A stretch of 14,834 nucleotides of DNA from a virus (IMGVR_UViG_3300012324_000001); one strand, 5' to 3'. Shown: positions 1 to 14,834, counted from the first letter of the stretch. Numbers and translations are program-made. The notes: a model not told the origin generated them from the letters alone.

Positions 1-764
1 ATGTAATGGTGTGGTCTGGTAGCGCGTGGGAAAACGTGGGGCAGATTCAAGGCCCCGCGGGTCCTGAGGGCCCTCGAGGCGCTACAGGTGAGCAAGGCCC
101 CACGGGTGCTCGAGGCGCTACGGGTGCTCGAGGTGCTACGGGCCCTGAGGGTCCTAAGGGTGCTCAGGGCGAGCCCGGCCCCGCGGGCCCCGCTGGCCCT
201 CAGGGCCTACCGGGCCCTAAGGGTGACACGGGCGACCGCGGCCCCACGGGTGCTACGGGCCCTCGAGGCGCTACGGGCGCTAAGGGTGACACGGGCCCCG
301 CGGGCCCGGCCGGTCCTGAGGCCCCGAAATACTACGGAATTTTACGCTGGTCTGGTAGCTGGTATAACCCGCCAGCTAATCAGTTCACCCGCCTGAGGGC
401 TAACTCTAATGGTCGCCTATATGTGTATTTCGACCGCGGACAGGTCGCTCAGCAAAATGGCGATGACCCGTGCCTCATCGCCCCGGTCGATGGCCTCTAC
501 CTACTCAGCGCCAAGCAGACGTGGGGCAATGGTAACGCCGTTAAAGCTATGGGGCTAGGTGGTTCCACAACGGACGGCATGAAAGACGTTGCGCTATGGC
601 AGGATGTTGTTAATTCATCGTTCGGTATGGTGACCGCTCTAGTGTGGCTAACTCAAGGCACGACACTTTACCCCTGGACCTTTAACAGCTCTAATACTGG
701 CATGAGCCCCGCGGACCGTGGCGTGACATCCGAGTACTCTATGTGTCTCATCGCTCAGCGCTAG
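1..764 (+). CDS. Collagen-like minor tail protein / tail fibre, C-terminal part. The ORF is open from the window start (frame of nt 3) and continues the ORF that starts at 14251 across the circular junction.
   Basis: 30 uninterrupted Gly-X-Y triplets (nt 51-320) followed by a ~150-aa non-collagen C-terminal domain; stop TAG 762-764. nt 1-127 are identical to 14708-14834, so the reading frame is continuous with 14251..14834. Confidence 0.7.
51..320 (+). repeat. Collagen-like Gly-X-Y coding repeat block 2 of the fibre gene (30 triplets). Block 1 is at 14374-14625 (28 triplets). The two blocks share many near-identical 20-40-nt segments.
   Basis: GGN-NNN-NNN periodicity. Shared segments such as cctcgaggcgctacgggtgctaagggtgacac occur in both blocks. 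Confidence 0.8.
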
Positions 765-834
765 ACGTGCTCGCCCTGGGCCCCGGCCTCGCTAAAAGTT
801 GCGCGGCGCGGGGCTAGTGGTGTATGTCTTAGGC

Positions 835-1104
835 ATGAGTAAACGTGATAAAAGGCTGAAAGGCCTGAAAACTACCTACCTAATGGAGCTAACACTAGCT
901 CATATTCGCCTATCCAACCGCTACATTCGGGAACTCGAGGCTCGAGGCGTCAACATTCGTAAGCTCGCTGAGAATAGCCGCGGAACTTATATAAAGGGTG
1001 ACGAAAATCTACGCCGGGCGATGTTCGATAAACCGGCATATAAAGAGGCGAGTAAAGAGGCCTACGCGGCCGCGGACGCCCGCCTGGAAAGGATGGGAGC
1101 ATGA
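835..1104 (+). CDS. Hypothetical small basic protein (89 aa), possibly DNA-binding. The track ORF begins at TTG 799; ATG 835 is preferred.
   Basis: ORF with coding-like codon usage; Lys/Arg-rich N-terminus (MSKRDKRLKGLK) and helical segment (SNRYIRELEARGVNIRKL). Stop TGA 1102-1104 overlaps the next ATG (ATGA). Confidence 0.45.
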   Translation: MSKRDKRLKGLKTTYLMELTLAHIRLSNRYIRELEARGVNIRKLAENSRGTYIKGDENLRRAMFDKPAYKEASKEAYAAADARLERMGA

Positions 1105-1436
1105 CCGCGCGCCATATTGCGGACCTCGAGCCGGACGAACTAATCAGCCGCCTATTCGCATATTCCAACCTCCACGGGCGATGCGTTAGAGTGCTAAGAG
1201 ACCGTGGATTATACAATGGTGACATATTAAGAAAGTCACACAACTCATTCAAAGACGGTAGAAACTCTATTACTGAGGATGATTCCTCTGCTATGGAGTG
1301 GATTCGATTCATCGTTGGTGAGTCATTCCAGCCCGTGTTTGCGGACCCGGCAGAGGAGCTCGAGCGCCTTAAGCGCTACCTTATTACCGCGTCTCTAGTC
1401 GCCGCGGAGTCTGGGGCCCTGGACGATGAGCAATAA
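1101..1436 (+). CDS. Hypothetical protein (111 aa), in a locally AT-rich patch.
   Basis: ATG 1101 overlaps the upstream stop (ATGA translational coupling). Local GC is markedly lower (~45-50% over 1180-1330) than the structural genes. Confidence 0.5.
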   Translation: MTARHIADLEPDELISRLFAYSNLHGRCVRVLRDRGLYNGDILRKSHNSFKDGRNSITEDDSSAMEWIRFIVGESFQPVFADPAEELERLKRYLITASLVAAESGALDDEQ

Positions 1437-1602
1437 CGAGAATTGCCCCTATTGTCGAGACCACGTACCACATAGACGCACCCCGATTCATTGTGACGTA
1501 TGCGGGCGAGTATTCGCCGCTTATCACGTCCCCGCTGAGAATAACGGGGCGAGAGAATGTGCTGATTGCCGGGCGAAACGTGTAGGGGAGTTGCTATTCT
1601 GA
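1426..1602 (+). CDS. Small zinc-ribbon-like protein (58 aa): MSNNENCPYCRDHVPHRRTPIHCDVCGRVFAAYHVPAENNGARECADCRAKRVGELLF. Not in the ORF track (<60 aa).
   Basis: Three CxxC pairs (C7/C10, C24/C27, C45/C48). ATG 1426 overlaps the end of the upstream gene (ATGAGCAATAA); stop TGA 1600-1602. Confidence 0.4.
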   Translation: MSNNENCPYCRDHVPHRRTPIHCDVCGRVFAAYHVPAENNGARECADCRAKRVGELLF

Positions 1603-2117
1603 GCCGCGTCGTATATAACTTAAATCGTAGGGCCTAACGCTCGAGGGTTTCCCATTTTACTCTCAACTATTGCATGGGTCGCTAGGCCCTACACCCCTAG
1701 AGATTGATGAGGGTTAATTCCTATTTCCGTCGCACCACCGCGGAATTAGCCCTCATGGGTCGCTAGGAAAGACAATAACTAGATGACTCATTAGCCTACG
1801 TCGGGCTCAAAGCAGACGGACCCCCAGCTTATGATGTGAGTACTGGGAACCAACAACCACATGCGCTCAAGAGCTTTCGCTGAATACTCAAAGAGCTGGA
1901 CGTAGCGCCCCGGCTCTACCCCGCCCGATTAGCTACCGGACAGGGTTCGGCACTAAAGAGCCGCTTGTGCAAAAAGGCACAGGTGGCTATTAGTCGTGGG
2001 ATGACGTCGGAAAGCGGTCAAAACTGGGAATTTTCCACTGGGGGGTCATCGGGAAAATAATTCCCCTTAGGGGATTCCTATAAGTAGCTACCCTAGCCCG
2101 TGCATACCTAGTAAAGG
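1603..2117. promoter_or_regulatory. 515-bp non-coding region with nested direct and inverted repeats. Candidate promoter/operator region, replication origin or structured RNA.
   Basis: No ORF >=60 aa on either strand. 14-bp direct repeat CATGGGTCGCTAGG at 1673-1686 and 1754-1767. 14-bp inverted repeat TGAGGGTTAATTCC (1708-1721) / GGAATTAGCCCTCA (1742-1755), with one mismatch and a 20-nt loop. 9-bp inverted repeat GTAGGGCCT (1627-1635) / AGGCCCTAC (1684-1692). Recurring GGAATT/AATTCC half-sites. Confidence 0.4.
1965..1993 (+). promoter_or_regulatory. Candidate sigma70-like promoter (TTGTGC - 17 bp - TATTAG) upstream of the WhiB-HNH-terminase gene block.
   Basis: -35-like TTGTGC 1965-1970, 17-bp spacer, -10-like TATTAG 1988-1993, ~125-135 nt upstream of the 2118/2127 start. 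Confidence 0.2.
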
Positions 2118-2636
2118 ATGGATGACATGACCGCCCCCACGATGAGTCTCCAAGATATCGCTGAACGTTATGAGAGTGCTCAGTGTGTGAAGTATGGCCG
2201 TCCTACTGATTGGGATGTTGAGGGCGCGGGCTCATGGTGGGGTCTCATGCCCTCGAGGCCGCCCCGCTACGTAACTCAGCTCATGGCGGCTGCTCTATGC
2301 GAGGATTGCCCGTTGCTGAGTATGTGTGCCTCTGACGCGCTCAGGGAGCGCCCTACTGGCGTCATACGGGCGGGCCTACCCGTTACGAGGGGTGACAGGC
2401 CGCCATCATGGCAGGAGTCTATCTGGCGCGCCGTAGCGGCCGGAGGGGGCCTCAGGCGCTCTATCGCTGGACTCTCTGGTGATTGGGACCCGGCCGCCGC
2501 CGTGGCATGGATTGACAGGTATCGCCCCTGGACCTCACGGGACCTAGCCCGGCTACCCCTGAGGGCCCGGCTCATAGGGGCCCGCCCTGAGGGTGCCCGG
2601 GGGTCCCGCGGGGCCCGGGGTAGGGGGCGAGCCTAG
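2118..2636 (+). CDS. WhiB-like (Wbl) Fe-S cluster transcription factor with an Arg/Gly-rich C-terminal tail. A more likely start is ATG 2127 (spacing 6 from RBS AAAGGATGG).
   Basis: Cys pattern C23...C61-x2-C64-x5-C70 (ALCEDCPLLSMCASDAL) followed by GVIRAG, matching the WhiB C-x2-C-x5-C plus GVWGG turn. Ends in ARGSRGARGRGRA. Confidence 0.6.
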   Translation: MDDMTAPTMSLQDIAERYESAQCVKYGRPTDWDVEGAGSWWGLMPSRPPRYVTQLMAAALCEDCPLLSMCASDALRERPTGVIRAGLPVTRGDRPPSWQESIWRAVAAGGGLRRSIAGLSGDWDPAAAVAWIDRYRPWTSRDLARLPLRARLIGARPEGARGSRGARGRGRA

Positions 2637-2905
2637 TGGCTGAGGGGTGGAGCGGACGTCGCGCTCAGCGACTGGTTAAAGCTACGCTCGCTCGCTATGG
2701 AGATGTGTGTCATCTATGCGGTCGACGCGGAGCAACATCAGCGGACCACATCATTCCTCGAGCTCATGGCGGCGATGACTCGCTAGATAACTTGCGTCCT
2801 GCTCATGTATCGTGTAATAGCTCGAGAGGTAAGATGAGTTTGGATGAATGGAGAGCAAAACATCCGCTGAAAGTCAACCGAGTCGCGCCAAGTAGAAAGT
2901 GGTAA
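2636..2905 (+). CDS. HNH endonuclease (89 aa), terminase-associated type.
   Basis: CHLCG...ADHIIPRAHGGDDSLDNLRPAHVSCNSSRG carries the HNH His/Asn motif and zinc ligands. GTG start overlaps the upstream stop. Lies immediately upstream of the putative cos site and terminase genes. Confidence 0.8.
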   Translation: MAEGWSGRRAQRLVKATLARYGDVCHLCGRRGATSADHIIPRAHGGDDSLDNLRPAHVSCNSSRGKMSLDEWRAKHPLKVNRVAPSRKW

Positions 2906-3064
2906 TTGTCACAAAAATGGTTCGGACTTTTTTTAAAAACGGACTACGGGACACCCCACGCGCCAGCGTGTTCCTTTCTCCCCGGTAGAGGGTGCCCGGG
3001 GTCGTCCCCTACCCCCTACCCCCCTTAAAATCAAGTTGGCGAGAAAATAGGAGAAAATAAAGCT
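2906..3064. promoter_or_regulatory. Candidate cos / packaging-recognition region between the HNH and TerS genes.
   Basis: 159-bp intergenic gap with an unusual T7A5 tract (2928-2940) flanked by CGGACT direct repeats (2923-2928, 2940-2945). Also a C-rich (CCCCTAC)n tract at 3006-3026 and a GAGAAAATA x2 tandem (3041-3059). Assignment rests on position between HNH and TerS, as in HNH-dependent cos phages. Confidence 0.3.
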
Positions 3065-3388
3065 ATGAGTGAAGCACTATTCAACATTGAGCGCCCTAAG
3101 GGGCGGCATGCTGCCATGCTCGAGACTGCTATCGAGGCCGCTCGAGAGTCTAGCCTCATTGAGGCGGTAGACGAGGGCCTGATATCCATTGCTCGAGCCA
3201 ACGCGCTCGCCCTGGACGAAGCGGAGGCCTCCCCCAAGCCGTACTATCCGATTGCTCAACTAACGGGACCCTATCGGGAAGTGCTCGAGGCCCTGCAAAT
3301 GACCCCTGAAACTCGAGAGGCTAAGGCAAATGACGAACTCACCGTCGCTCTGCGAGAGCTATCCACGCCCGCGGTTCGGAACGCCTAG
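3065..3388 (+). CDS. Putative terminase small subunit (107 aa, helical, acidic).
   Basis: Position directly upstream of TerL and downstream of HNH/cos; small size. No diagnostic motif, so the call is positional. Confidence 0.4.
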   Translation: MSEALFNIERPKGRHAAMLETAIEAARESSLIEAVDEGLISIARANALALDEAEASPKPYYPIAQLTGPYREVLEALQMTPETREAKANDELTVALRELSTPAVRNA

Positions 3389-3428
3389 ACCTACCGGCCC
3401 TACGTGGGGCCCGGCTATCTGTAAAATC

Positions 3429-4775
3429 ATGGATTGGCTAGGCACCCCTGCTATGCCGTGGCAAGAGTACGCCGCGGACGTGATAGGCGAGATTGACCCT
3501 CGTACTGGACTAGCCCGCTGGCCGATGGTGATTATTTCCGTACCACGACAGGCCGGAAAGACCACACTGGTACTCGCCGCGTGTCTACACCGCATGCTCA
3601 CGGGCGAGAAACGCCGCGTGTGGTCCACGGCTCAGACGGGCCTCAAGGCTCGCAAAAAGTGGCTCGAGCAAGTAGAAACTATTGAGTCTGACGCCTTTCC
3701 CTTGCGCGAGCTATTCCAGACGAAAAAGTCTCAGGGTAGCGAGCAACTTTCCATCCCGCGCCTGGGCTCGCATTTCTCACCACACCCGCCCTCTGAGGAT
3801 TCGCTACATGGTGAACAATCTGACCTTAATTTCATCGATGAGGGCTGGGTATTCGATGAGGCTCAGGCTCAGGCGCTCATGCAAGCTATCGTTCCTACGC
3901 AAACTACGCGCCCTGGCGCTCAAACAATCATCGTTAGCACGATGGGCACCGCCTCGAGCACCTGGTTTCATGGGCTCGTGGATAAGGCGAAATTGCCCGG
4001 CTCAAAAATCGCCCTGCTCGAGTGGGGTATCGGACCGGATGATGATCCATCTGACCTCGAGACAGTCGCTCATCATCACCCCGCATACGGGCATACTCTG
4101 AACATGCACGCCCTCGAGGCGGCCCGGGAACAGCTCGCCCCGGCTGAGTTTGCGCGTGCATACGGGAATAGACCTACCGGCGCTAGGGAGCGCTTTATTC
4201 CGCTCGAGGCGTGGGAGTCTGCACAATCTGAGCTAATGATTCCCGATGACGCGCCCGTGACTTTTGGCGCGGCCGTATCGATGGACCGTACCGAAGTTGC
4301 TATCGCCGCCGCTGCATTCGGAGAGGATGGAGTCCCGATTATTGAGATGGTCGACGTTCGCCCTGGCACGGGGTGGGCGCTTAAGCGCCTCGAGTCACTG
4401 TGTGAGCGCCACGACGCGCCGCCGCCGCTAGTGGACCGCATAGGTCCTAGCGGAACATTGGTTGACCAACTGAAACAGGTAGACCTCGAGCCGCCGAAGT
4501 TCTACGCCCGGGACCTCGCTACCGCATGCGCGGACCTCATGGACCGTATTACCCGCGTCGATGTGGATGGCGTGGCCTCGCCGGATGTGCATATTCGCCC
4601 CGATGAGTCGCTAGATATGGCCGCGGAACTAGCGGAACAACGTCGCATGGGTGACGCTTGGGCATGGGACCGTAAACGCCCGGCCGGTTCCATTGCCTCG
4701 CTCGAGGCCGCCACTCTCGCCCTTTACGCCCTCATCCACCGCCCGGCCCCGCCCGTGGCACCCGCTATCTACTAA
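3429..4775 (+). CDS. Terminase large subunit (ATPase + nuclease). The track ORF starts at 3330, but that start overlaps TerS by 59 nt; ATG 3429 is preferred.
   Basis: Walker A VPRQAGKTT and Walker B-like NFIDEGWVFDE. N-terminus LGTPAMPWQEYAADVIGE is typical of Terminase_1/6. C-terminal acidic nuclease-like region. Confidence 0.85.
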   Translation: MDWLGTPAMPWQEYAADVIGEIDPRTGLARWPMVIISVPRQAGKTTLVLAACLHRMLTGEKRRVWSTAQTGLKARKKWLEQVETIESDAFPLRELFQTKKSQGSEQLSIPRLGSHFSPHPPSEDSLHGEQSDLNFIDEGWVFDEAQAQALMQAIVPTQTTRPGAQTIIVSTMGTASSTWFHGLVDKAKLPGSKIALLEWGIGPDDDPSDLETVAHHHPAYGHTLNMHALEAAREQLAPAEFARAYGNRPTGARERFIPLEAWESAQSELMIPDDAPVTFGAAVSMDRTEVAIAAAAFGEDGVPIIEMVDVRPGTGWALKRLESLCERHDAPPPLVDRIGPSGTLVDQLKQVDLEPPKFYARDLATACADLMDRITRVDVDGVASPDVHIRPDESLDMAAELAEQRRMGDAWAWDRKRPAGSIASLEAATLALYALIHRPAPPVAPAIY

Positions 4776-4783
4776 GGAATTTC

Positions 4784-4993
4784 ATGGAGCCGTATCTGAA
4801 AATAGATGAGTCTGTATTCTGCACTCTCGCTATATGCGAGAAGTGTGGATGGCGGGCGGTCATGGGCGCGCCCGCTACCGCCTGGAAAGAGCTGGCACTG
4901 CACGCTAAGGTTGCTCACGATGACCGACACGCCACTAACGCGGCGCGGCATGCTATGTGGTGGCACCGCCAGCGCTCAGTTCGACGCCGCTAG
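4784..4993 (+). CDS. Small Cys/His-rich hypothetical protein (69 aa) between TerL and the portal.
   Basis: Good RBS AAGGAA 4774-4779 before ATG 4784. CTLAICEKCGW plus a His-rich stretch (HAKVAHDDRHATNAARHAMWWH) suggest a possible metal-binding site. Confidence 0.4.
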   Translation: MEPYLKIDESVFCTLAICEKCGWRAVMGAPATAWKELALHAKVAHDDRHATNAARHAMWWHRQRSVRRR

Positions 4994-5017
4994 ACTGCAT
5001 GGAGCCTAATTAGCCGT

Positions 5018-6079
5018 ATGGGAATTTTTAGCCGTATCCGAAACGCCCTCAACGCCCCGGCGCTCTATCACCCGAACGCGATAGCGAGCCCGCTCTCATC
5101 CGGTGATATCCTCGCCCCGGTATTCGCTGGACTGGACCTCCCCGCCCTGGATGGAGCCGTAACCCGCGATATGGCTATGGCCGTGCCCGCGCTCGCTCGA
5201 GCTCGTAGCCTCATATGTTCAACTATCGCCGGTGTCCCGCTCGTATCCGTCGATGACGATGGAGACGATGACGGCCGGACGCCGGATTACATTAAGTCAA
5301 CGCTGGGAGATGTACCGCCGTATCACCGCATGCTCTGGACGGTAGACGATCTATTCTTTTACGGGTGGTCATTGTGGGCGGTAGAGCGCGATAGCCGCGG
5401 CCGCGTCCTGGACGCCGCCCGCGTACCGTATGAGATGTGGTCGATGGATAGTGAGGGGAACGTCCTGGTCGATGGCGAGCCCGCCCGCGCTGAGGATGTG
5501 TGCCTCATCCCCGGTATCTCTGAGGGTATCCTCACGACCGGCCGCGCCACTATCGCTCAGGCTCATCAGCTACTACGCGCGGCCGCCCGCGCCGCCGAAA
5601 ATCCAGCCGCTCAGGTGGAACTACATCAAACTAATGAGGCCCCGATGACAGAAGAGGATGTGGAATTTCTCATCTCTAAGTGGGCTCGAGCTCGAGCGGG
5701 TGAAAACGGGGGAGTTGCTTTCACGTCCGCTGGTATTGAGGTTAAAGAGCATGGGGCCTCGAGTGAGCACCTACTCATTGAGGGACGTAACGCGGCCGCC
5801 GTCGATATCGCCCGTCATGCTAATCTGCCCGCTACGATGGTCGACGCCACGCTATCGGGCTCGAGTCTCTCATACCAGAACACCGCCGCGAGGATGAGTG
5901 AGCTCGTAACTTTTGGCCTCTCGCCACTAATGAAAGCCGTAGCCGCCCGGCTCTCGCAAAATGACATGAGCCCGGACGGCATTCGCCTATCGTTCGATAT
6001 GGATAGGACCTTTGAGGACCTATCCCGCGTCTATTCAGCCACATCTCAGGAGGATGAACTCAATGACACTAGTAACTGA
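5018..6079 (+). CDS. Portal protein (353 aa, short HK97-family-like portal).
   Basis: Position after TerL. N-terminal region ARARSLICSTIAGVPLV...GWSLWAVERDSRG resembles the conserved portal N-terminal helix and turn. No other portal candidate in the genome. Confidence 0.6.
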   Translation: MGIFSRIRNALNAPALYHPNAIASPLSSGDILAPVFAGLDLPALDGAVTRDMAMAVPALARARSLICSTIAGVPLVSVDDDGDDDGRTPDYIKSTLGDVPPYHRMLWTVDDLFFYGWSLWAVERDSRGRVLDAARVPYEMWSMDSEGNVLVDGEPARAEDVCLIPGISEGILTTGRATIAQAHQLLRAAARAAENPAAQVELHQTNEAPMTEEDVEFLISKWARARAGENGGVAFTSAGIEVKEHGASSEHLLIEGRNAAAVDIARHANLPATMVDATLSGSSLSYQNTAARMSELVTFGLSPLMKAVAARLSQNDMSPDGIRLSFDMDRTFEDLSRVYSATSQEDELNDTSN

Positions 6080-6866
6080 TTGGTCTCAGCGATTCAATTT
6101 CGGAGGCCCGCGCCCCACTGCAAAGATTCGGAATATCTTTATCCACACGACCGAGAACCCCTTTACATCTACAGCTGAGGGTGTCGCAAACTATCAAATC
6201 TCGAGTGAGTCGGGCTCATACCACGTGCTAGTGGACCAAAGCAAGCGACTCATCTGTAATACGGATGATTGGCTCACCTGGTCTACGGGTAACTATGGAA
6301 ATGACATTGGCCTACATCTTTCGTTTGTGGCCTACGCCGCCTCAACTCGAGCTCAGTGGCTCGAGGAAGAGAAACAGCACGGGACCATTAGCCGCGCCGC
6401 GGAACAGGTCGCCGCCTGGTCCAAAAAGCACAACATCCCGCTAGTGGAAGTCGATGGTAACGGCCTACTCGCCGGACGCCGTGGCGTCTCTACCCACAAC
6501 GCGGCCCGCGTGTGGGGAAATACGGACCATACGGACCCGGGCTCAGGGTTCCCGATGGACGTCCTGCTCTCTAAGGCCGCCCGCCCTAACTCCACCCCTC
6601 AACCTAAGAAAGTAGATGACATGTTTACCGATAAAGACCGCGACCTGCTCGAGCGCGTACACCATGAGCTAACCCACAAGTTTGACAGCCGAGCCGACCT
6701 GGACGCCAAAAAGCCTAACCCGTTCAAAGATACGGCTATTGGCTACGCACTCGAGGCAGATAAAAAGCTCGAGCTCGCCCCCGGCTCTAAGCTCGCTGAG
6801 GCATTCGACCACCTAGCCGCGGAACTAGCGGAAGTAAAATCGCTACTGACTAAGCGGGTGGACTAA
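6063..6866 (+). CDS. N-acetylmuramoyl-L-alanine amidase (Amidase_2/PGRP) endolysin with a C-terminal helical extension. The track start 6012 is replaced by ATG 6063.
   Basis: Amidase_2 signature residues: IHTTE (Zn His), SYHVLVD, NDIGLHLSF, and THNAARVWGNTDHTDPGSGFP (His...H.DP). RBS AGGAGGA 6048-6054 lies 8 nt before ATG 6063. Confidence 0.8.
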   Translation: MTLVTDWSQRFNFGGPRPTAKIRNIFIHTTENPFTSTAEGVANYQISSESGSYHVLVDQSKRLICNTDDWLTWSTGNYGNDIGLHLSFVAYAASTRAQWLEEEKQHGTISRAAEQVAAWSKKHNIPLVEVDGNGLLAGRRGVSTHNAARVWGNTDHTDPGSGFPMDVLLSKAARPNSTPQPKKVDDMFTDKDRDLLERVHHELTHKFDSRADLDAKKPNPFKDTAIGYALEADKKLELAPGSKLAEAFDHLAAELAEVKSLLTKRVD

Positions 6867-7289: not shown

Positions 7290-8886
7290 AGGATTAATTA
7301 TCCCCTACGGAGCGCCCGGCCGGACTAATGGCGGTATTCTCACCATTAACGCCGGGGCGGTCACTGTTCCCGCGGACATTGGCCGTGTGAAGCTACTCAG
7401 GGACCACTCCACTGAGCCGGGCTGGTCGCCGGTCGGGAAAGCCGTCGATATGCAAGAGACAAAAGACGGACTCGAGATGACCTTTGAGATAGGCGACACT
7501 GAGGACGGCCGGACCGCAATAGCAGATATTGAGTCCGGTATCCGAGACGCCCTCAGCGTGGAAATTATCGACACTGAGGTAAAGGGAAATGAGCTCACTA
7601 GCGGTATCCTTACCGCCGTGGCCCTGGTCCCGATTCCCGCGTTTGAGGAGGCCCGTATTTCTGAGATTACCGCCGCTCAACACGTAGAAGAGGATGAGCG
7701 GGTGAGCGTAGTATTCGCCCCCGATTCCCCGGCCCTAGCCGCCTCCCAAGATACTCAAGTTACCCGCCCCGAAAAGGAAGAGGAAAGCATGACCGAGAAG
7801 CGCACCATTCGTAAGACTATCGAGGATGAGAAGGACAACATCCCCGCCTCGAGCGAGTCTAACGAGACCTCTAGCGATGAAGAGGATGAAGAGGATGAAG
7901 AGGATGAAGAGGATGAGCGTAAGGAGTCTCAGGTGAACGCCGCCCGTGCCCCCCGCGGCCTCATGGTGAAGCAGAACGCGCCGCTGACTTTCTCTCAGGC
8001 AGTTGAGACTATTCAGCGCATGCGGACCGGACAGGCTGGCGCGGAAATGACCGCCGCCCTGGCCGATATCACCCGCTCTGCTAACCCGGCCGTATCCGCC
8101 CCTCAGTGGTTGGGCCAAATGTGGGACGGCGCGGACTACGAGCGAGAGATCGTCCCCACGTTCACTCAGGCCACCCTCACCCGCATGAAAGCCGTTGGCT
8201 GGCGTTTCACCCAAAAGCCTGAGGTCGATGACTACGCGGGCGACAAGGCAGAAATTCCTACTAACACCGTCGCTACGGAGCCGGTAGAGGTCAACGCCAA
8301 GCGACTCGCCGCCGGACACGATATCGACCGCGCATATTTTGACTTTAACGAGCGCGAGTTTCTCGAGGCATTCTTCAACGCCCGCGTTGTGGACTACAAG
8401 TTAAAGACCGATGAGCGCGCCGCCAAGTTCGCCTTTGATTCCGCCAAGGCCGCCCCGGCCGTAACTACCGGAACTGAGCCGGACCTGCTGCACGCCGCGG
8501 CCCGCGCCCGCCTCATCATCAAGCAACGTACGCGAGTTGAGCCAACGACCTACCTGGTTAACCCGGCCTCTATGTTCGGTCTATTCCAGATTACCCAGCT
8601 GGACAACCCGGCCTATCTGGACCTGCTAGGTGTACGCCCTGAGCGTTTCCTCGCTACGGACCTCGTACCTGAGGGGCAGGTAGTAGCCTACGCTAAGCAA
8701 GCGATGACCTGGTTCGAGCTACCGGGCTCGCCTATTCGTGTCGACGCTGAACGCATTGACCACGGAGGTAAGGATTCCGGTATTTTCGGATACTACGCCG
8801 CCATTCTGAATAACTCTCAGGGTGTTGTGTCTATCCCGTTCAATACCACCCCGGCCGCCCCGGTCGCTGACAACAACGAGGCCTAA
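7279..8886 (+). CDS. Prohead (capsid maturation) protease fused to major capsid protein (535 aa), joined by an acidic scaffold-like linker.
   Basis: N-terminal ~130 aa match the HK97 gp4-type prohead protease family (Peptidase U35/S78): VKLLRDHSTEPGWSPVGKAV...ETKDGLEMTFEIGDTEDGRTAIADIESGIRDALSVEI, with catalytic His in RDHS and Ser in ALSVEI. An acidic linker SSDEEDEEDEEDEEDE follows. The C-terminal ~330 aa is the only capsid-sized gene between portal and connector and has MCP-like segments (TYLVNPASMFGL..., GQVVAYAKQAMTWFELPGSPIRV). Confidence 0.7.
   Translation: MKIKGLIIPYGAPGRTNGGILTINAGAVTVPADIGRVKLLRDHSTEPGWSPVGKAVDMQETKDGLEMTFEIGDTEDGRTAIADIESGIRDALSVEIIDTEVKGNELTSGILTAVALVPIPAFEEARISEITAAQHVEEDERVSVVFAPDSPALAASQDTQVTRPEKEEESMTEKRTIRKTIEDEKDNIPASSESNETSSDEEDEEDEEDEEDERKESQVNAARAPRGLMVKQNAPLTFSQAVETIQRMRTGQAGAEMTAALADITRSANPAVSAPQWLGQMWDGADYEREIVPTFTQATLTRMKAVGWRFTQKPEVDDYAGDKAEIPTNTVATEPVEVNAKRLAAGHDIDRAYFDFNEREFLEAFFNARVVDYKLKTDERAAKFAFDSAKAAPAVTTGTEPDLLHAAARARLIIKQRTRVEPTTYLVNPASMFGLFQITQLDNPAYLDLLGVRPERFLATDLVPEGQVVAYAKQAMTWFELPGSPIRVDAERIDHGGKDSGIFGYYAAILNNSQGVVSIPFNTTPAAPVADNNEA
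7876..7917 (+). repeat. Tandem 9-bp repeat (GATGAAGAG) x ~4.7 encoding the (DEE)n acidic linker inside the protease-capsid gene.
   Basis: Direct reading: gatgaagag repeated at 7876, 7885, 7894, 7903, then gatgag. Confidence 0.85.
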
Positions 8887-8888
8887 TC

Positions 8889-9200
8889 ATGTCTGACATC
8901 ATCGCCGCCGATGAGGTATTGCACGCCATGCAACTAGGGGAGCGCGAGCGCCCTGAGGTTGAGGATGTGGTATCCGCCGTCAACGCTCTGATTAAGTCCT
9001 ATAAAGGGGACCGTGAAGAGTGGCCCGCCTATTGGCGGCAGGGCGCGAAGATGTTAGCTCAGCGAGTCTACCGTCGCCGGGATTCCCCGGCCGGTGTTGA
9101 GGCTATGGGCGAGCTAGGCCCGGTCTACGTCTCTCGTAACGACCCGGACCTAGCACAGTTGCTCGAGTTAGGCCGATATGCTAAGCCGGTGGTTGGATGA
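8889..9200 (+). CDS. Head-tail connector / adaptor protein (gp6-like), 103 aa.
   Basis: Position immediately after the capsid gene; size and C-terminal LAQLLELGRYAKPVV resemble gp6-like connector proteins. Stop overlaps the next ATG (ATGA). Confidence 0.5.
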   Translation: MSDIIAADEVLHAMQLGERERPEVEDVVSAVNALIKSYKGDREEWPAYWRQGAKMLAQRVYRRRDSPAGVEAMGELGPVYVSRNDPDLAQLLELGRYAKPVVG

Positions 9201-9550
9201 TTAAAGACAAACTAGACCATATGGTCACAGTGACAAAAGACGCCGGTATATCAGCTACCCTAGACCCGCCGAAAATTAACCCGCCCGGGGTCTGGATATG
9301 CGCCCGCCGCCTGGACACCGAGACTCTGCCGGGATTCTTTACCACAGTTGCGGATGTTTACCTAATCACCCGTGATACGGGAGTTATCCCCGCCCTCGAG
9401 ACTCTAGACGGCATGCTCGAGAAACTCATCGACGCCATCCACAACGATGACGCCCTCGAGATTGTATCCAGTGCCCTGGATGAGTCCGTAACCCTACCGC
9501 ATGGCGCGGCACCATTGCCCGCCTATCGACTATCAGTAAACATTTCTTAG
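9197..9550 (+). CDS. Head-tail joining protein (head closure / tail terminator candidate), 117 aa.
   Basis: Position and size only; translationally coupled to the connector gene. Confidence 0.35.
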   Translation: MIKDKLDHMVTVTKDAGISATLDPPKINPPGVWICARRLDTETLPGFFTTVADVYLITRDTGVIPALETLDGMLEKLIDAIHNDDALEIVSSALDESVTLPHGAAPLPAYRLSVNIS

Positions 9551-9560
9551 GAGAGTAATC

Positions 9561-9983
9561 ATGGTTGCACGCGCCCCACGCGCTCAAAAGCTAGGCCCTG
9601 GCGAGCTGAAAATCGGAGGTGATGAGCTAGATATCTCATGCCAGATGACTGAGGTAAAAATCACCTGGGATATCGACGAAGATGACGCCGTACCCACGCT
9701 ATGCGGTGGCACTATGCCGGGCGATACCACCTATCAGGCTAAGCTCGAGGGCGAGGCATATCAGGACCTCACTAAGGGCGGGATTCTAGAGTACACCTGG
9801 AAAAACAGGGGCGAAATCAAGTCTGTAACATTTACCCCCACCACTGGCACCGCAAAAATTACCGGCTCTGTAGTAATTCAGCCGCTCGAGCTGGGTGGCG
9901 AGGTAGGCAAAAAGAATACCTCTGATATTGAGTTCAGTTTCGCAGGGGACCCGGTATTCACCCCTAACGAGCCTGCTAAGTAG
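9561..9983 (+). CDS. Putative major tail (tube) protein, 140 aa, beta-rich.
   Basis: RBS AGGAGA before ATG 9561. Gly/Thr-rich beta-strand-like composition (GTAKITGSVVIQPLELGGEVGK...SDIEFSFAGDP) typical of small siphovirus tube proteins. No other tube candidate upstream of the chaperone/TMP genes. Confidence 0.4.
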   Translation: MVARAPRAQKLGPGELKIGGDELDISCQMTEVKITWDIDEDDAVPTLCGGTMPGDTTYQAKLEGEAYQDLTKGGILEYTWKNRGEIKSVTFTPTTGTAKITGSVVIQPLELGGEVGKKNTSDIEFSFAGDPVFTPNEPAK

Positions 9984-9988
9984 AGCTC

Positions 9989-10384
9989 ATGGTTTATCAG
10001 GGATTGAAAATTGAGGGCGGGCGGCAATTACGCCGCACCCTCAGGGACGCCGGTAGCGACCTACAAGACCTGAAAGAAGCTAACGCCGCCGCGGCCGGTA
10101 TCGTATCGGGTAAAGCAAAAAGCTGGGCCCCTACGAGGTCCGGTCGCCTCATGGCGTCGGTACGCTCATCCGGTACTAAGACGGCCGGTATCGTGAGGGC
10201 GGGTAACAACCGCAAATCAAAAAATGGCGTGCCCTACGCCGCGCCGATTCATTGGGGCTGGAAAGCACGTAATATCAAGGCTAACCCCTTTCTTTCCTAC
10301 TCAGCTCAGGCCACTGAGCCAACCTGGATTCGCCTATATGAGTCGCTCGTAAATAAAGCACTATCGAAAATCAAAGGAAAATAG
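9989..10384 (+). CDS. HK97 gp10-family protein (head-tail joining / tail completion), 131 aa.
   Basis: APTRSGRLMASVRSSG...AGIVRAGNN...VPYAAPIHWGW...ANPFL closely follows the HK97_gp10 family consensus (aPv.TG.Lr.Si....vG....YA..vefG....PFl). Confidence 0.55.
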   Translation: MVYQGLKIEGGRQLRRTLRDAGSDLQDLKEANAAAAGIVSGKAKSWAPTRSGRLMASVRSSGTKTAGIVRAGNNRKSKNGVPYAAPIHWGWKARNIKANPFLSYSAQATEPTWIRLYESLVNKALSKIKGK

Positions 10385-10388
10385 AAAT

Positions 10389-10661
10389 ATGTCTCTGAAA
10401 CTAGATGTAACGCTCGCTAATGGTGAACAGCATGAGGCGACCATCCTCAACCCTGATAGGGTTCGCTGGGATATGGCCGCTACTCGTAATGGATGGCCTA
10501 CGTTTGAAAAAGCGCCCTTTTTGGGAATGACGTATCTCGCATGGGCGAGCCTTAAGCGAGAGAATAAGTATTCCGGTACTTGGGATGAGTTCAAGGAAAC
10601 TGATTGCCTCGAGGTAGAGTCCCGCGATGAAGAGCTCGAGGATGACGCCACGGGAAAATAA
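10389..10661 (+). CDS. Tail assembly chaperone (G-like), 90 aa, acidic C-terminus.
   Basis: Position immediately upstream of the tape measure. Acidic tail (ESRDEELEDDATGK). Ends in the slippery heptamer G_GGA_AAA abutting the stop codon. Confidence 0.55.
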   Translation: MSLKLDVTLANGEQHEATILNPDRVRWDMAATRNGWPTFEKAPFLGMTYLAWASLKRENKYSGTWDEFKETDCLEVESRDEELEDDATGK

Positions 10662-10804
10662 TTCCTGAGGGTACTCTCGCCCGTACCCTGATTGAGCTGA
10701 GTTACGCCTGGAAAATCAGCCCGGCCGAAGTGCTCGCCCTGGATGATGAAATTCAGGCAACGATGATAGATATCCTGAGGGAGGTTAGTAAGCAAAGTGG
10801 CTAG
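10389..10804 (+). CDS. Tail assembly chaperone G-T fusion made by programmed -1 ribosomal frameshift at 10652-10658. The -1 frame adds ~48 aa (GKIIPEGTLARTLIELSYAWKISPAEVLALDDEIQATMIDILREVSKQSG), stopping at TAG 10802-10804.
   Basis: X_XXY_YYZ heptamer G_GGA_AAA sits exactly at the 0-frame stop (10659-10661). The -1 frame stays open for 48 codons through the whole 135-nt 'intergenic' gap and stops overlapping the TMP GTG start (10797). This is the canonical G/G-T arrangement. Confidence 0.5.
10652..10658 (+). other. Slippery heptamer GGGAAAA (-1 PRF site) of the tail chaperone gene.
   Basis: Read directly from the sequence; see the G-T feature. Confidence 0.5.
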
Positions 10805-12728
10805 TAAGACTGCTATCCTCTCAGTCCGTATCATTTCGGACGCGAAAAAAGCGGTAGCCGGATTCAAGGAGGCCGCGGGCGGCCTGGACGGCCTCGAGCG
10901 CAAACTGAATAAGGTCCAACCGGCCGCTACCGTAGCCGCGGGCGCGGTCATCGCTATGGGTAAACAAGCGATTGATAGCGCCTCTAAGCTCCAACAGTCT
11001 ACCGGCGCGGTTGAGGCTGTATTTAAAAATCAGTCGACCGCGATTAAGAAACTCGCCGCGGACGCGGCCGGGGCGGTAGGTCTATCCGCTAATCAGTATC
11101 AAGAGTTCGCCTCAGTCATTGGCTCTCAGCTTAAAAATCTAGGAACCGCTCAAGAGGACCTCGTACCCACTACGGATAAACTCATCACAATGGGCGCGGA
11201 CCTCGCCTCAATGTTCGGAGGTACTACCGCGGACGCCGTAGAAGCCCTCTCTGCTGCTTTCCGTGGTGAATATGATCCAGTTGAGCGCTACGGCATTTCG
11301 ATTAAGAAGAGCGACATTAACGCCCGGCTCGCCGCTAAGGGCCTGGACGGCCTCGAGGGTGAGGCGCTGAAAACCGCGGAAACTCAAGAGTTGCTCGCTA
11401 TGCTGACTGAACAATCAGCGGACGCTATGGGCAATTTCCAGCGCGAGACAGACACCGCCGCGGGCTCAGCGCAAATCGCCGCCGCTAATTGGGAAAACGC
11501 TAAGGCCTCGCTAGGTGAGGCATTCCTGCCTATTGTCACTCAGGCCGCGGAAAAGCTCGCTGGCATGTCTAGCGCCGTGAAAGAGCACCCCCAGTTATTT
11601 ACCGCAATGGCCGGGGCAATTGTGGGAGCCGCTGCCGCTATCAACCTCGCGCTACTCGCTATTAAGGGCTATCGCGCTGTTACCACTATCGTTACTGGTA
11701 TTAAGACCGCATGGGCGGGCCTGAACACGTCGATGGCCGTCATCCGAGGCCAGATGATTCTAGGTAACGCCGCGGCCGCCGCCCGGTCCGCTACCGCGTG
11801 GGTCGCCGCCGCCGCCCGCGCCGCGGCCGCATGGGTCGCTAACGTCGCCCGTATGGTGGGAGCGTGGGCTATGGCCGCCGCTCAGTCTGCCATCCACGGG
11901 GCTCGAGCCGGTATCCAGTGGGCACTAGGAGCCGCCCGCGCCGCTACCGCATGGGTAGTTAACCTCGCTCGTATCGGTATTGCCTGGACTCTCACAACGG
12001 CCCGCGTAGTAGCTCAGCTCGCCATCCAGCGCGGCGCTATGATGGCCGCCCGAGCCGCCACCCTTATGATGGCGGCAGGACAGGCGATTCTAAACGCCGT
12101 CATGTCTGCTAACCCTATTGCCATCGTGGTACTCGCCATCGCCGCCCTAGCGGCCGGGCTCGTAGTCGCCTATAACAAGAGCGAGACTTTCCGAAACGCG
12201 GTACAGGCCGCGGGTCGATTCGCTAAGGCTGCATTCGACCTCGCTAAAAACGCGGTAATGGGAGTCATTCACAAAATTGGCGAGGTCATTGGCCGCGTAG
12301 GTGGTGTTGGTGGTGCATTCCGTACCGCCATGAGTATCGCTAAGGGCGCGGTCGATATCCTCACATGGCCGCTACGTCAACTCATTGGTTTCATCGAAAA
12401 CGTCATTAGCGCGATTAGCCGTATCCGGTTCCCGTCGCCGCCTGGATGGATGAGAAAGCTCACGGGCGGCGCGGTTCAATTCTCAGCCGCTGGCGGGGCC
12501 ATGCTTACCGCCGCGGGGCCCGCTACGTTTAGCCCTATTGGTGGCGTGCTCTCAGGCGGTAGCTCGCCCGCCCCGGTCAATGTGGATAACAGGGTGATTA
12601 TTAATGTGGACGGGTCCGGTATTGTCGACCCCCGCGCCGTTGCTGAGCAAATCAGGGACGCGCTTAAATCGGATGGCCGCGGGCGCGGAGGCCGCCTCGC
12701 CGCCGGGGGAGGTGCTCAATGGCTGTAA
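10797..12728 (+). CDS. Tape measure protein (643 aa).
   Basis: Position after G/G-T. Long Ala-rich helical sequence with internal repeats (ATAWVAAAARAAAAWVANVARMVGAW...ATAWVVNLARIGIAWT), a hydrophobic membrane-like core (IAIVVLAIAALAAGLVVAY) and a Gly-rich C-terminus. Confidence 0.85.
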   Translation: MASKTAILSVRIISDAKKAVAGFKEAAGGLDGLERKLNKVQPAATVAAGAVIAMGKQAIDSASKLQQSTGAVEAVFKNQSTAIKKLAADAAGAVGLSANQYQEFASVIGSQLKNLGTAQEDLVPTTDKLITMGADLASMFGGTTADAVEALSAAFRGEYDPVERYGISIKKSDINARLAAKGLDGLEGEALKTAETQELLAMLTEQSADAMGNFQRETDTAAGSAQIAAANWENAKASLGEAFLPIVTQAAEKLAGMSSAVKEHPQLFTAMAGAIVGAAAAINLALLAIKGYRAVTTIVTGIKTAWAGLNTSMAVIRGQMILGNAAAAARSATAWVAAAARAAAAWVANVARMVGAWAMAAAQSAIHGARAGIQWALGAARAATAWVVNLARIGIAWTLTTARVVAQLAIQRGAMMAARAATLMMAAGQAILNAVMSANPIAIVVLAIAALAAGLVVAYNKSETFRNAVQAAGRFAKAAFDLAKNAVMGVIHKIGEVIGRVGGVGGAFRTAMSIAKGAVDILTWPLRQLIGFIENVISAISRIRFPSPPGWMRKLTGGAVQFSAAGGAMLTAAGPATFSPIGGVLSGGSSPAPVNVDNRVIINVDGSGIVDPRAVAEQIRDALKSDGRGRGGRLAAGGGAQWL

Positions 12729-14242
12729 CGCCTAAGCCATCCGTTTACATTAATGGCCGCCGCGTCGCGTGCTCTACGTATGCCCTGGACCGGGAGCCGG
12801 TCGCTATTCGTGGATTCGAGATTAAGTGGGGGCGCGCTGATTACCACGATTCCGACGCGGAACCCGCGTCAATTCGTCTACATATAGCGGACTCCACGGG
12901 TAAATGGGCTGAGTTGATTCGCACATCTCAAGCGATTGGACAGACTCTCGAGGTACGCCTCGAGGGGACCAACGACAAGACATACGAAACTCAAACCTGG
13001 ACACAGTTCCGCGGGCGCGTCTCTCGTGCGCTCGCCCGGCCGATGAGCAACACGGGCCCTCAGGGCGAGCAACGTTGGGAGATTACCCTGGACGGTGCAG
13101 ACCGTACCGCGGACATGGGCTCTCGTACCGTAACTGAGAGTGAGTGGCCTCAAGAGCAACTACTAACCCGCGCTATCCGTCTCCGCGATTATGGAAAAGC
13201 GGCTGGTAGCGGTATCGACAATATCTACTTTTACCCCGGCTATCTCGAGTCACGGTGTGGACCGCTGGACACTCAGCGCGCCACCCCGCTAGACCTCATG
13301 GGGCAGATGTATAGGTCTATGGGTAATGACTCGTGGGCCTACGACCCGGACGGGAACGTCGTTCGACAGGTGATTCGTCTCGCTCAGTCGCTACATATTC
13401 ACCTGGGCACGTTTGACGATACTCAGGGCGCGGTTATTCCAGTGGTGAACGATATCACTGTGGATAAGGTGCGTTATGAGGGTATCGGGCTAGGTGCATG
13501 CGAGCTCGCTGGCGATCCGCAAATTGAGGCTGACGTATCGACCGACATCAATAGGTTAGAGTGCAAGTGGAAAGACTACTCTACCGGATTTAAAGACTGG
13601 ACCACTGTTAAACAACAGGTTCCAGCGGGCGGCTCAGTCCACACGATGACCTGGGATAGCTGGTTTGACGCGGGCGAGGTCATCGACCCCACGCTCGCTA
13701 ACGTGTGGAATAGAGTACGCCAAGAGGGAGCCCGGCCGCGCCACCCTGAGATGGAACTACACCACCAAAAGACTTTCCCCACTTTCAGGCATGCTCACTG
13801 GTGGTTACATACGTGGGAGAATACCCGCCCGGCCTATCTAGCGGGCTCGCTACCGTGGCTATGGGTCATGGGAGGCTCAACTGACTATCCGCCCGTGGTC
13901 GCCCCGATTGGTGGCACTACGTCATATGATCCACGCTACGGATGGACCGTATCGATGACGGTCCACTGGATACAGAACACATCTACCACTAAGGACCCGG
14001 TACGATGGAACGACCTACCACAAATTAAATTCCAACTCAATACCGACACAGTCCCTTGGTGGTGGAAAACAGCCGGTTTACCTACGCCGCCGCCTAAGAC
14101 AGTGGGTGAGCGGACCCCTGAAAGAGATCTCACGTGGGGAGAGGTATCGGATGGCCGCGGCTACCGATTCGGAGATTCCGTCACGTGGGGAGACATGCAA
14201 AATGTACCCACTAACGGGGCTCAGATTGTTGACCATTTCTAG
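12719..14242 (+). CDS. Minor tail protein, Dit-like (distal tail) N-terminal domain with a Trp-rich C-terminal extension (507 aa).
   Basis: Immediately follows the TMP with a 10-nt overlap. N-terminus (VYINGRRVACSTYALDREPVAIRGFEIKWGR...) resembles siphovirus distal tail proteins. C-terminal half is rich in W/Y/P (WWLHTWENTRP..., PWWWKTAGLPTPPPK), consistent with a carbohydrate- or receptor-binding module. Confidence 0.5.
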   Translation: MAVTPKPSVYINGRRVACSTYALDREPVAIRGFEIKWGRADYHDSDAEPASIRLHIADSTGKWAELIRTSQAIGQTLEVRLEGTNDKTYETQTWTQFRGRVSRALARPMSNTGPQGEQRWEITLDGADRTADMGSRTVTESEWPQEQLLTRAIRLRDYGKAAGSGIDNIYFYPGYLESRCGPLDTQRATPLDLMGQMYRSMGNDSWAYDPDGNVVRQVIRLAQSLHIHLGTFDDTQGAVIPVVNDITVDKVRYEGIGLGACELAGDPQIEADVSTDINRLECKWKDYSTGFKDWTTVKQQVPAGGSVHTMTWDSWFDAGEVIDPTLANVWNRVRQEGARPRHPEMELHHQKTFPTFRHAHWWLHTWENTRPAYLAGSLPWLWVMGGSTDYPPVVAPIGGTTSYDPRYGWTVSMTVHWIQNTSTTKDPVRWNDLPQIKFQLNTDTVPWWWKTAGLPTPPPKTVGERTPERDLTWGEVSDGRGYRFGDSVTWGDMQNVPTNGAQIVDHF

Positions 14243-14250
14243 GAGATAAA

Positions 14251-14834
14251 GTGCCTCAGTACACGCAAAATTATAAAATTCCCTACCCCGTCGATGGCGA
14301 CCCTATTTATCAGGGCGCGGCTCAGATGAAAGCACTTGCTGAAAAGGTGGACGCCACGATGATAGGCGTCTCAGGAAAGCCCGGCCCTCAGGGTGACACG
14401 GGCCCCGCGGGCCCTCAGGGCACCCGCGGCCCGGCCGGACCCCCGGGCCCGGCTGGTCCTGAGGGCCCTCGAGGCGCTACGGGTGCTAAGGGTGACACCG
14501 GCGACCGGGGCCCCGCGGGCGAGACTGGACCCGTGGGCCCTGCTGGACCTACCGGCCCTCGAGGCGCTACGGGTGCTCAGGGCGAGCCCGGCCCCGCGGG
14601 CCCTAAGGGTGAGGCCGGAACGGGTTTCACGCTCAAGGGCTCAAAGAGTAATAAATCTGAGCTACCCAACAACGCTAAGGCTGGAGACGCCTATCTCGTA
14701 GCGGGCAATGTAATGGTGTGGTCTGGTAGCGCGTGGGAAAACGTGGGGCAGATTCAAGGCCCCGCGGGTCCTGAGGGCCCTCGAGGCGCTACAGGTGAGC
14801 AAGGCCCCACGGGTGCTCGAGGCGCTACGGGTGC
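14251..14834 (+). CDS. Collagen-like minor tail protein / tail fibre, N-terminal part. GTG start; runs off the window end and continues at nt 128. Full product ~406 aa with two Gly-X-Y blocks.
   Basis: RBS AGGAGA 14241-14246, GTG 14251, in-frame stop TGA upstream at 14230-14232. 28 Gly-X-Y triplets (14374-14625) then a linker ([46 protein letters not shown]) that runs into the second collagen block at window nt 51. The frame was checked across the 127-nt overlap: 14713 is in frame with 14251. Confidence 0.7.
   Translation, partial: MPQYTQNYKIPYPVDGDPIYQGAAQMKALAEKVDATMIGVSGKPGPQGDTGPAGPQGTRGPAGPPGPAGPEGPRGATGAKGDTGDRGPAGETGPVGPAGPTGPRGATGAQGEPGPAGPKGEAGTGFTLKGSKSNKSELPNNAKAGDAYLVAGNVMVWSGSAWENVGQIQGPAGPEGPRGATGEQGPTGARGATG
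14708..14834. repeat. Exact 127-bp terminal duplication (identical to nt 1-127), marking a circular or terminally redundant contig.
   Basis: Base-by-base identity of 14708-14834 with 1-127, ending exactly at the window end. The matching sequence is unique and non-repetitive (ATGTAATGGTGTGGTCTGGTAGCGCGTGGGAAAACGTGGGGCAG...). Confidence 0.9.

Follow-up and report, generated by a model that had tools for sequence, protein, structure and literature searches.

What does it mean when a viral contig ends in the very bases with which it begins? The question is raised by IMGVR_UViG_3300012324_000001, a stretch of viral DNA of 14,834 nucleotides (nt), presented as one strand and referred to here, at its full length, as the window, in which the first 127 nt recur as the last 127 nt inside the gene of a collagen-like tail fibre. 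The window was found, with high confidence, to be the complete genome of an uncultivated, probably lytic, cohesive-end (cos) packaging siphovirus of the type of Rhodococcus phage RRH1 and the Gordonia phages Schiebs and Emperor, forming a circle of 14,707 bp and most likely infecting lipophilic skin Corynebacterium. The 127-bp repeat is a circularisation artefact of de Bruijn assembly and not a biological terminal repeat, because its length follows the k-mer size (k) of the assembler, its position is arbitrary and an independent contig (L031) carries the 14707->1 site in a single copy.

Completeness of the genome

Genes were assigned by PHROG and Pfam scans, and synteny was established by tblastn against six complete genomes (RRH1, Schiebs, SallySpecial, Emperor, EricDab and Coeur), with matches in syntenic order for 16 of the 21 window proteins. 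Rotated by ~3 kb, the window holds the full set of a genome type that runs from the gene of the terminase small subunit (terS) to an HNH endonuclease gene, every module being present once, and it was considered a full single-copy genome set because this order matches that of the six complete phages. The complete genome of ~14.7 kb put forward in the original prediction, made from the sequence of the window, was thus supported, and the terminase, portal, capsid, tail and lysis functions that it had named were recovered as PHROG and Pfam matches. The traits of small actinobacteriophages were likewise found: a genome below 20 kb with more than 80% structural coding, the structural, packaging and lysis genes spanning ~2.6-14.7 kb and 1-0.76 kb; the gene order terS-terL-portal-lysin-capsid-tail-minor tails-early genes-HNH, accompanied by protein homology; and a fusion of capsid and maturation protease, in the form of a 535-amino-acid (aa) open reading frame (ORF) that matches both major-head and head-protease PHROGs.

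By tblastn, the capsid fusion and the terminase large subunit (TerL) were closest to those of the Gordonia phages EricDab, Emperor, SallySpecial, Schiebs, Coeur and Rahul, the cluster CW phages and Rhodococcus RRH1, with 33-51% aa identity. A comparison with Arthrobacter, Microbacterium and Rhodococcus phages had been proposed, and it held for Rhodococcus; the closest cultured phages (30-60% aa identity) are those of Gordonia and Rhodococcus, not those of Arthrobacter or Microbacterium. At the nucleotide level, a whole-genome Megablast search against 50,697 phage records gave no match, and the guanine-cytosine (GC) content of the window is 58%, compared with 68-71% in the cultured relatives. 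The placement of the genome near the lower size limit of tailed phages was upheld. Small actinobacteriophages, recorded in a 2020 survey from Arthrobacter, Microbacterium, Gordonia, Streptomyces and Rhodococcus only, have genomes of 14,270-19,679 bp, and the window lies near the bottom of this range but is no record, since RRH1 and Schiebs are smaller. RRH1 was called the 'smallest known Siphoviridae genome' (Petrovski et al. 2012), and isolated tailed phages of 11.6-14.5 kb, together with a predicted T=3 capsid for RRH1, were reported by Luque et al. (2020). The value of 14.7 kb is a size at which T=3 or T=4 capsids are predicted for tailed phages, and a cultured isolate would help with the question of the "missing small capsids".

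Among the rival explanations, the one that survives best, and is nevertheless very unlikely, takes the window for a satellite or defective element in need of a helper. Such an element would fit the scans of the window with PHROG and Pfam, in which no replication, recombination or nucleotide-metabolism gene was recognised and five or six small ORFs received no family-based function, but the genes for packaging, head, tail and lysis are all encoded, and plaques are formed by cultured relatives whose gene sets are equal or smaller (RRH1 with 20 genes, Schiebs with 25 genes). Moreover, more than 80% of the coding capacity of such phages is stated to be structural (Pope et al. 2017), and the coverage given in contig names reaches up to several hundred-fold in skin metagenomes.

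The terminal overlap and the closure of the circle

Nt 1-127 match nt 14708-14834 exactly, and the window has no longer exact end overlap. The 127-mer, as well as its first and last 30-mers, was found at two sites only (2 copies in a repeat search, 100% identical, with a spacing of 14,707), and the chance expectation of an exact match of 127 nt is nil. The match is not a generic collagen GXY repeat, because the other collagen-coding repeats of the window are only 60-78% identical to one another over 76-109 nt; in addition, the opening ~50 nt of the overlap code for a non-collagen linker. Both the exact, unique overlap and its distinctness from mere collagen repeat had been predicted, and both were verified. 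The two copies have no strand of their own: the first (1-127), inside the tail-fibre gene, is the assembly artefact, and the second (14708-14834) is the copy to trim, which leaves 14,707 bp of unique sequence with a GC content of 58.1%.

The fibre gene reads continuously across the join, as the original prediction had it. A single ORF of 406 aa on the + strand starts with GTG at 14251, runs through 14834/127 and stops at 764, so that its 5' part occupies 14251-14834 and, as it resumes at base 128, its 3' part falls within 1-764. It comprises an N-terminal domain, a first collagen tract, a linker, a second collagen tract and a C-terminal domain, and it matches Pfam Collagen (1e-27) as well as PHROG tail-fibre families. 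Uninterrupted homologues of 416 and 410 aa were found in the relatives L007 and L008, respectively, with the same linker contiguous in both, and the fibres of diverged relatives have the same two-tract architecture.

There is a slight chance that the circle was mis-assembled through the collagen (GXY) repeats and that the true fibre gene or genome is substantially different. The break lies in a repetitive gene in which another assembly, L011, also breaks (~72), and the copy number of a 9-bp triplet differs at ~143, where one extra CCTGAGGGT unit (a GPE collagen triplet) is the sole difference between the fibre gene of L031 and that of the window. However, no exact repeat other than the overlap comes near 55 nt, the collagen copies being diverged as described; assemblies of different samples at k=55, 119 and 127 agree on the fibre gene bar this one triplet; and the two-tract architecture is kept in diverged relatives.

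The nature of the overlap was decided by independent assemblies, gathered by capsid-based scans of IMG/VR and of public metagenome contigs and by an exact TerL sequence look-up. Contigs of the same phage, 92-100% identical to the window, each close on themselves. Overlaps of 127 nt were found in L026 (ERZ939008 k127_7266) and L027 (ERZ938127 k127_9622), both of 14,858 bp, with breaks at window positions ~9.0 and ~10.5 kb, respectively, and one of 119 nt in L028 (k119_6322, 14,841 bp), with a break at ~10.2 kb. The three SPAdes NODE contigs L029 (14,770 bp), L010 (14,786 bp) and L011 (14,789 bp) have overlaps of 55 nt and break at ~11.8 kb, at 2984-3039 and at ~72, the last inside the fibre gene. 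The unique lengths of these assemblies are 14,715-14,734 bp. An overlap of 55 nt is likewise present in L017, a more distant relative, and for the JGI contig Ga0079226_10002250, with a 70-nt overlap in a locus 53 nt short, ~123 nt was inferred. Eight independent circular assemblies of the phage or its close relatives therefore present overlaps of 127, 127, 119, 55, 55, 55, 55 and ~123 (inferred) nt; seven different breakpoints occur among the assemblies, and the overlap length tracks the k in the contig names (127, 119 and 55 in k127_, k119_ and NODE contigs). L031 (ERZ26880715 NODE_58), from another sample and 100.0% / 99.84% identical to the window, crosses 14707->1 once with no added base, and L032 is 100% identical to the window over 12,091 bp. 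The exact junction 40-mer had no match in IMG/VR. With overlaps equal to k at differing positions and a contig that reads through the join, the probable assembler artefact of the original prediction was substantiated.

A yet slighter chance was given to the view that the contig is only part of a longer replicon, such as a prophage or tandem array, with two real 127-mers and falsely circularised. The relatives L008, L016 and L121 are prophages, and contigs longer than one unit exist (21,261, 17,644 and 31,769 bp). Nonetheless, the window contains no integrase, repressor, attP or tRNA-Lys remnant and no host gene; the break of the prophage relatives is at attP, next to the repressor, and not within the fibre gene; and each module occurs once, in an order that closes as in the complete relatives. 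The over-unit contigs consist of phage as well. The 21,261-bp contig (ERZ1030628 NODE_15, L019+L024), when fully reconstructed, is a pure head-to-tail phage repeat of 1.445 genome lengths with a period of 14,715 and no host flank; the part present twice, 6.5 kb long, has 4 mismatches and 2 gaps between its copies, and because of these 6 sites the contig is a spiral through co-occurring strain variants. The 17,644-bp contig (ERZ1030434 NODE_96) is phage sequence only over the 15,461 bp examined, and ODXR01000028.1 (31,769 bp) has a repeat period of 15,810 bp in the loci examined, contained about twice, and is about a dimer of a temperate relative.

Least probable of all is a biological direct terminal repeat of T7 type with virion ends in the fibre gene: a short repeat of this kind would likewise give exact contig-end repeats, but in the other assemblies the overlap does not keep a fixed position (~0.07, 3.0, 9.0, 10.2, 10.5 and 11.8 kb) and has the length of k (55, 119, 127), only one copy is present where L031 passes the site, the repeat sits inside an ORF, and the HNH-terS-terL arrangement and a cos-like sequence are shared with relatives whose cohesive ends are on record (SallySpecial, Emperor).

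The artefact would arise as follows. A de Bruijn assembler at k=127 would walk once round a circular graph and reprint the first k bases at the end; the graph would be circular owing to reads that bridge concatemers, replicative circles or joined cos ends; and the start point would be arbitrary, falling by chance within the tail-fibre gene. The terminal overlap left by SPAdes and MEGAHIT has the length of the final k, as in the sibling contigs. For annotation, one copy of the 127-mer should be trimmed, the genome restarted at cos upstream of terS and the fibre gene given as one ORF, and CheckV-style "DTR" (direct terminal repeat) calls on such contigs should not be taken as packaging evidence.

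Predicted cohesive ends

In the cultured relatives, the genome begins just upstream of terS and finishes just after or within the HNH gene, and the records of SallySpecial and Emperor state cohesive ends, joined at the HNH-terS side. In the window, the HNH gene (2636-2905) lies beside the terminase genes, with terS starting at 3065 after a 160-bp spacer, and a cos site, GACACCCCACGCGCCAGCGTG (2950-2970, no strand), is predicted between them, where the genome ends of the relatives align. When the Gordonia genomes were closed, right end to left end, and aligned to the window, the junction fell at ~2954-2967; the window reads GGGACACCCCACGCGCCAGC|GTGTTCCTTTCTCCCC at this point, resembling ...GGACACCCCGCGCC|GTGTCCGTTTTTTCC in EricDab. 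Two linear contigs also end there: L012 (14,742 bp, 84% identity) terminates in ...CCCCATGCGCCAGC and begins again with these 13 nt, and L007 (15,521 bp) ends ~20 nt short of the site on both sides. A small palindrome, CACGCGCCAGCGTG, at 2957-2970 was the sole yield of terminator-like hits in a scan of 700-3200. The virion DNA is accordingly predicted, from these alignments, to be a linear molecule whose cohesive ends are cut near 2954-2967, at ~3 kb from the edge of the window. Cleavage of cos by terminase together with an HNH endonuclease reportedly takes place in HK97-type phages (Kala et al. 2014), and the terminase and the adjacent HNH endonuclease of the window would cut cos in this manner.

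Host, habitat and lifestyle

In the collection, 65 blocks index a TerL identical to that of the window; most of the contigs examined are of 10-20 kb, and two of them are labelled human skin metagenome (PRJNA46333). The phage recurs in metagenomes of human skin. In relatives at ~75% nucleotide identity (L007, L008, L013/14 and L017), a three-gene cassette is present between the fibre gene and the 111-aa ORF that starts at 1101 in the window; it encodes a 259-aa tyrosine integrase, a divergent repressor with the 3' part of tRNA-Lys(CTT) in its 3' end, and an Xis-like helix-turn-helix (HTH) protein. The cassette occupies 12367-13985 in L007 and 2443-3323 plus 17476-18255 in L008, and its counterpart in the window is 764-1101. 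The tyrosine integrase and attP-bearing repressor of temperate CW-type phages are thus present in L007, L008, L013 and L017; the ORF, tRNA and relative-cassette comparison of the window gave no integrase ORF, repressor, attP or tRNA-Lys fragment. Because the window is devoid of them, its phage is probably obligately lytic. The Corynebacterium habitat would thus be shared by a temperate and a probably lytic form of one mini-phage.

The host is indicated by the prophages. L008 adjoins tRNA-Lys, an L,D-transpeptidase gene and an LLM oxidoreductase gene, and the flanking transpeptidase is 96% identical to that of Corynebacterium sp. LaCa142, followed by MSK072 (95%), C. macginleyi (88%) and the C. 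tuberculostearicum complex (~80%). L121 is contig JBEHFT010000047.1 of the cultured Corynebacterium sp. KPL2838, with a prophage at the same locus that is 92% identical to L008 at the nucleotide level. A capsid-pattern scan of species-representative genomes found no prophage. The 'companion phage' of C. simulans (Tsai et al. 2016) was considered and ruled out as this phage, as it is a different, 31.8-kb prophage. A WhiB-like gene (weak match) is present in the window. By comparison with these relatives, the most likely host of the window lineage is Corynebacterium of human skin. The prophage of KPL2838 might be induced for the study of the family, and for skin corynebacteria so tiny a lytic phage might prove a useful tool.

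Several points, besides the replication genes that the scans did not recognise, weigh against a complete, cos-packaging Corynebacterium phage with a 14,707-bp circle. The closure of the circle rests on independent assemblies. The extra CCTGAGGGT unit of L031 sits 16 nt past the 127-nt overlap, and the 9-bp difference at ~143 may be either real strain variation or a repeat unit collapsed in the window; by one or the other, the true unit length could be 14,716 rather than 14,707 bp. The cos position and its overhang are predicted from homology and contig ends, the 13-nt duplication at the ends of L012 is not fully explained, and the first 15 nt of L012 mismatch the other genomes at this place. 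Finally, direct evidence of the host comes only from temperate relatives, which share ~73-75% nucleotide identity with the window.

Gene content

The coding fraction is 94% of the circle, and all convincing genes, including those given below, are on the + strand. The packaging genes are terS (3065-3388; PHROG 15169, 1.4e-23) and terL (3330-4775; PHROG 9, 3e-47; 44-50% aa identity to Emperor, SallySpecial, RRH1 and Schiebs). Between terL and the portal gene lies a conserved 69-aa ORF (4784-4993) with a CxxxxCxxC motif, 76-87% identical at the aa level in relatives and detectable in RRH1, Schiebs and EricDab; ORF 4806-5009 was dropped as the gene of this interval, 4784-4993 being the conserved frame. 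The portal protein (5018-6079; PHROG 12, 6e-25; Pfam Phage_portal on identical genes) is followed by an endolysin (lysin A, Amidase_2; 6012-6866), matched in PHROG and Pfam and called on near-identical contigs from a start ~50 nt further downstream (267 aa), and by a 50-aa transmembrane holin-like protein (6866-7018), with a Kyte-Doolittle maximum of 2.28 in a 19-residue window and the position of the SallySpecial holin. A conserved 106-aa protein with a hydrophobic segment (6969-7289; PHROG 4316) precedes the 535-aa fusion of major capsid protein and maturation protease (7279-8886; PHROG 2263, 4e-92, and protease PHROGs), which has an acidic linker and is annotated as a fusion in relatives. 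A run of GAAGAGGAT repeats at 7874-7916 codes for this E/D linker between the protease and capsid domains; the same run produced a spurious weak Rfam snoRNA match.

The tail module comprises a head-to-tail adaptor (8889-9200; PHROG 5938, 7e-29), a tail terminator-like protein (9197-9550; PHROG 6768; syntenic with Schiebs gp10), the major tail protein (9561-9983; PHROG 4574, 1.4e-34), two small tail-assembly ORFs (9989-10384 and 10389-10661; PHROGs 5 and 6889), the second syntenic with the Schiebs tail assembly chaperone, the tape measure protein (10797-12728; PHROG 8462, 1e-46) and a minor tail protein (12719-14242; PHROG 16526, 3e-54), ahead of the collagen-like fibre. The tape measure, the major tail protein and the lack of sheath genes point to a siphoviral virion, which would have a long non-contractile tail.

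Downstream of the fibre gene, a 101-aa ORF (799-1104) occupies the slot of the integrase, repressor/attP and Xis-like HTH genes of the temperate relatives; its homologues are found only in the 14.7-kb contigs, and it matched no PHROG or Pfam family. It is followed by the conserved 111-aa ORF (1101-1436), with homologues in L007 and L008 and no family match in the same scans, and by a 58-aa zinc-ribbon protein (1426-1602) with three CxxC pairs and weak Pfam zinc-ribbon matches, kept in RRH1, Schiebs and the metagenome relatives. A WhiB-like protein of 172 aa (2118-2636) with a C..CxxCx5C motif is a weak match (Pfam Whib E=0.005, under the cut-off; PHROG WhiB-like E=0.0045), and the 89-aa HNH endonuclease (2636-2905; PHROG HNH 5e-20; 60-65% identical in aa to its terminal counterparts in RRH1 and the Gordonia phages) is encoded by the final gene ahead of the predicted genome end. 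ARAGORN found no transfer RNA (tRNA) or transfer-messenger RNA in the window, and in a promoter consensus scan of 700-3200 promoter-like sites were no commoner than chance.

Conserved non-coding element

A 515-bp non-coding stretch separates the zinc-ribbon and WhiB-like genes and contains, on the + strand, a conserved element of ~420-430 nt (1698-2117, with a 3' domain at 1951-2077), present in all relatives in the zinc-ribbon/WhiB interval and marked by covarying pairs. RNAalifold on seven sequences gave a fold of 16 helices and 104 pairs, of which 30 pairs show compensatory changes; pairing holds in 92% of cells, compared with 36-43% when the partners are slid, and the observed covariation score was reached by 0 of 500 shuffles, values to be read with the sequences being few and the structure being derived from that same alignment. 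The + strand is favoured by many G-U pairs. The element is not coding, because the ORF frames over its invariant core (UGGGAUGACG..GGAAAGCGG..CACUGGGGGGUCAUC) vary by lineage, and small ORFs inside it (e.g., 1965-2060) were dropped as genes for the same variation of frame over invariant nucleotides.

Diverged copies were found in the three IMG/VR contigs L115, L117 and L118, the first two with little or no nucleotide similarity to the window and the third, a relative at a greater distance, with ~67-71% identity over parts, all in the order zinc-ribbon, element, WhiB, HNH and then terS where the contig reaches it. A covariance model of the 3' 127 nt gave a full-length match of 47 bits to Emperor 16094-16217, in the equivalent intergenic region. 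In L119, a 21-nt element motif was present with no nhmmer match around it, and this contig was rejected as a chance match. The element of the window was not detected in the gap of Schiebs; the gaps of Schiebs (L001, 13224-13737) and Coeur (L006, 14980-15365) carry a tandem pair of the motif GGCTCCATAC(C), iteron- or operator-like and unlike the element of the window. Rfam gave no match to the element, only two chance snoRNA-like matches being returned for the window at E<=1, and literature searches found no description of such an RNA-like element.

On the modelled pairing, the element is probably a structured RNA. GAUGAC occurs twice, at ~1782-1787 and ~2000-2005, and each copy can pair with the single invariant GGUCAUC at ~2044-2050; RNAalifold paired the distal copy with 7 sequences and the local copy with 10. 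The two GAUGAC copies competing for one GGUCAUC may form alternative structures that act as a switch. It is further suggested, tentatively and as a possibility, that the element represents a new class of large structured phage RNA supplying a function that is not protein-encoded in minimal genomes, for instance as a leader, a timing switch or a device of processive antitermination for the one long late operon, or as an RNA primer or origin for host-driven replication, the roles judged most plausible. If this is true, the window belongs to an abundant uncultured human-skin phage lineage in which the function of the RNA is testable.

Comparison with known phages

The group to which the window is compared is mixed, RRH1 being lytic and the Gordonia cluster CW temperate, with integration-dependent immunity at tRNA-Lys and a repressor overlapping attP (Pope et al. 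2017). The Arthrobacter phages of cluster AN (about 15.3-15.6 kb) are also small siphoviruses with a capsid-protease fusion, but they are far more distant (26% aa identity for the capsid and 35% for TerL).

RRH1 (14,270 bp) shares with the window the order terS, terL, small ORF, portal, lysin, membrane protein, protease-capsid, adaptor, tail, tape measure, minor tails, small ORFs and HNH, as well as a lytic-type set without integrase, with aa identities of 47.5% for TerL and 65% for HNH. It differs in its GC content (68% versus 58%), its lack of nucleotide similarity, a genome smaller by ~440 bp, its host genus and the absence of a collagen-like fibre of the length found in the window. In addition, the homologue of window ORF 6969-7289 is fused into the protease-capsid ORF in RRH1 (L002, 4463-4717), whereas it is a separate gene in the window and in Schiebs, and the longer capsid ORFs of Emperor, SallySpecial and Coeur might also contain it, but tblastn gave no match to it there; the head module is split differently between the lineages. 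Schiebs (14,646 bp), of lytic type, is nearly identical to the window in size and gene order, and it shares lysin A (48% aa identity), the zinc-ribbon ORF, ~510 bp of non-coding sequence ahead of the final genes and a terminal HNH beside the genome end; aa identity is nevertheless only 33-60%, and its GC content is 70.6%.

The best TerL and capsid matches (45-51% aa identity) were obtained with Gordonia Emperor, SallySpecial, EricDab and Coeur and cluster CW (15.9-17.7 kb, temperate), which have the same structural synteny and a cos region that can be aligned to the window; unlike them, the window lacks integrase, repressor, attP and lysin B and is smaller by 1.2-3 kb. The cluster CW design, with a Y-integrase, an attP-overlapping repressor and tRNA-Lys integration, is shared by the relatives L007, L008 and L017. 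Literature searches found no description of the phage of the window, which is a new uncultured lineage of an already known phage type and adds a Corynebacterium-associated lineage to the small-genome actinobacteriophages.

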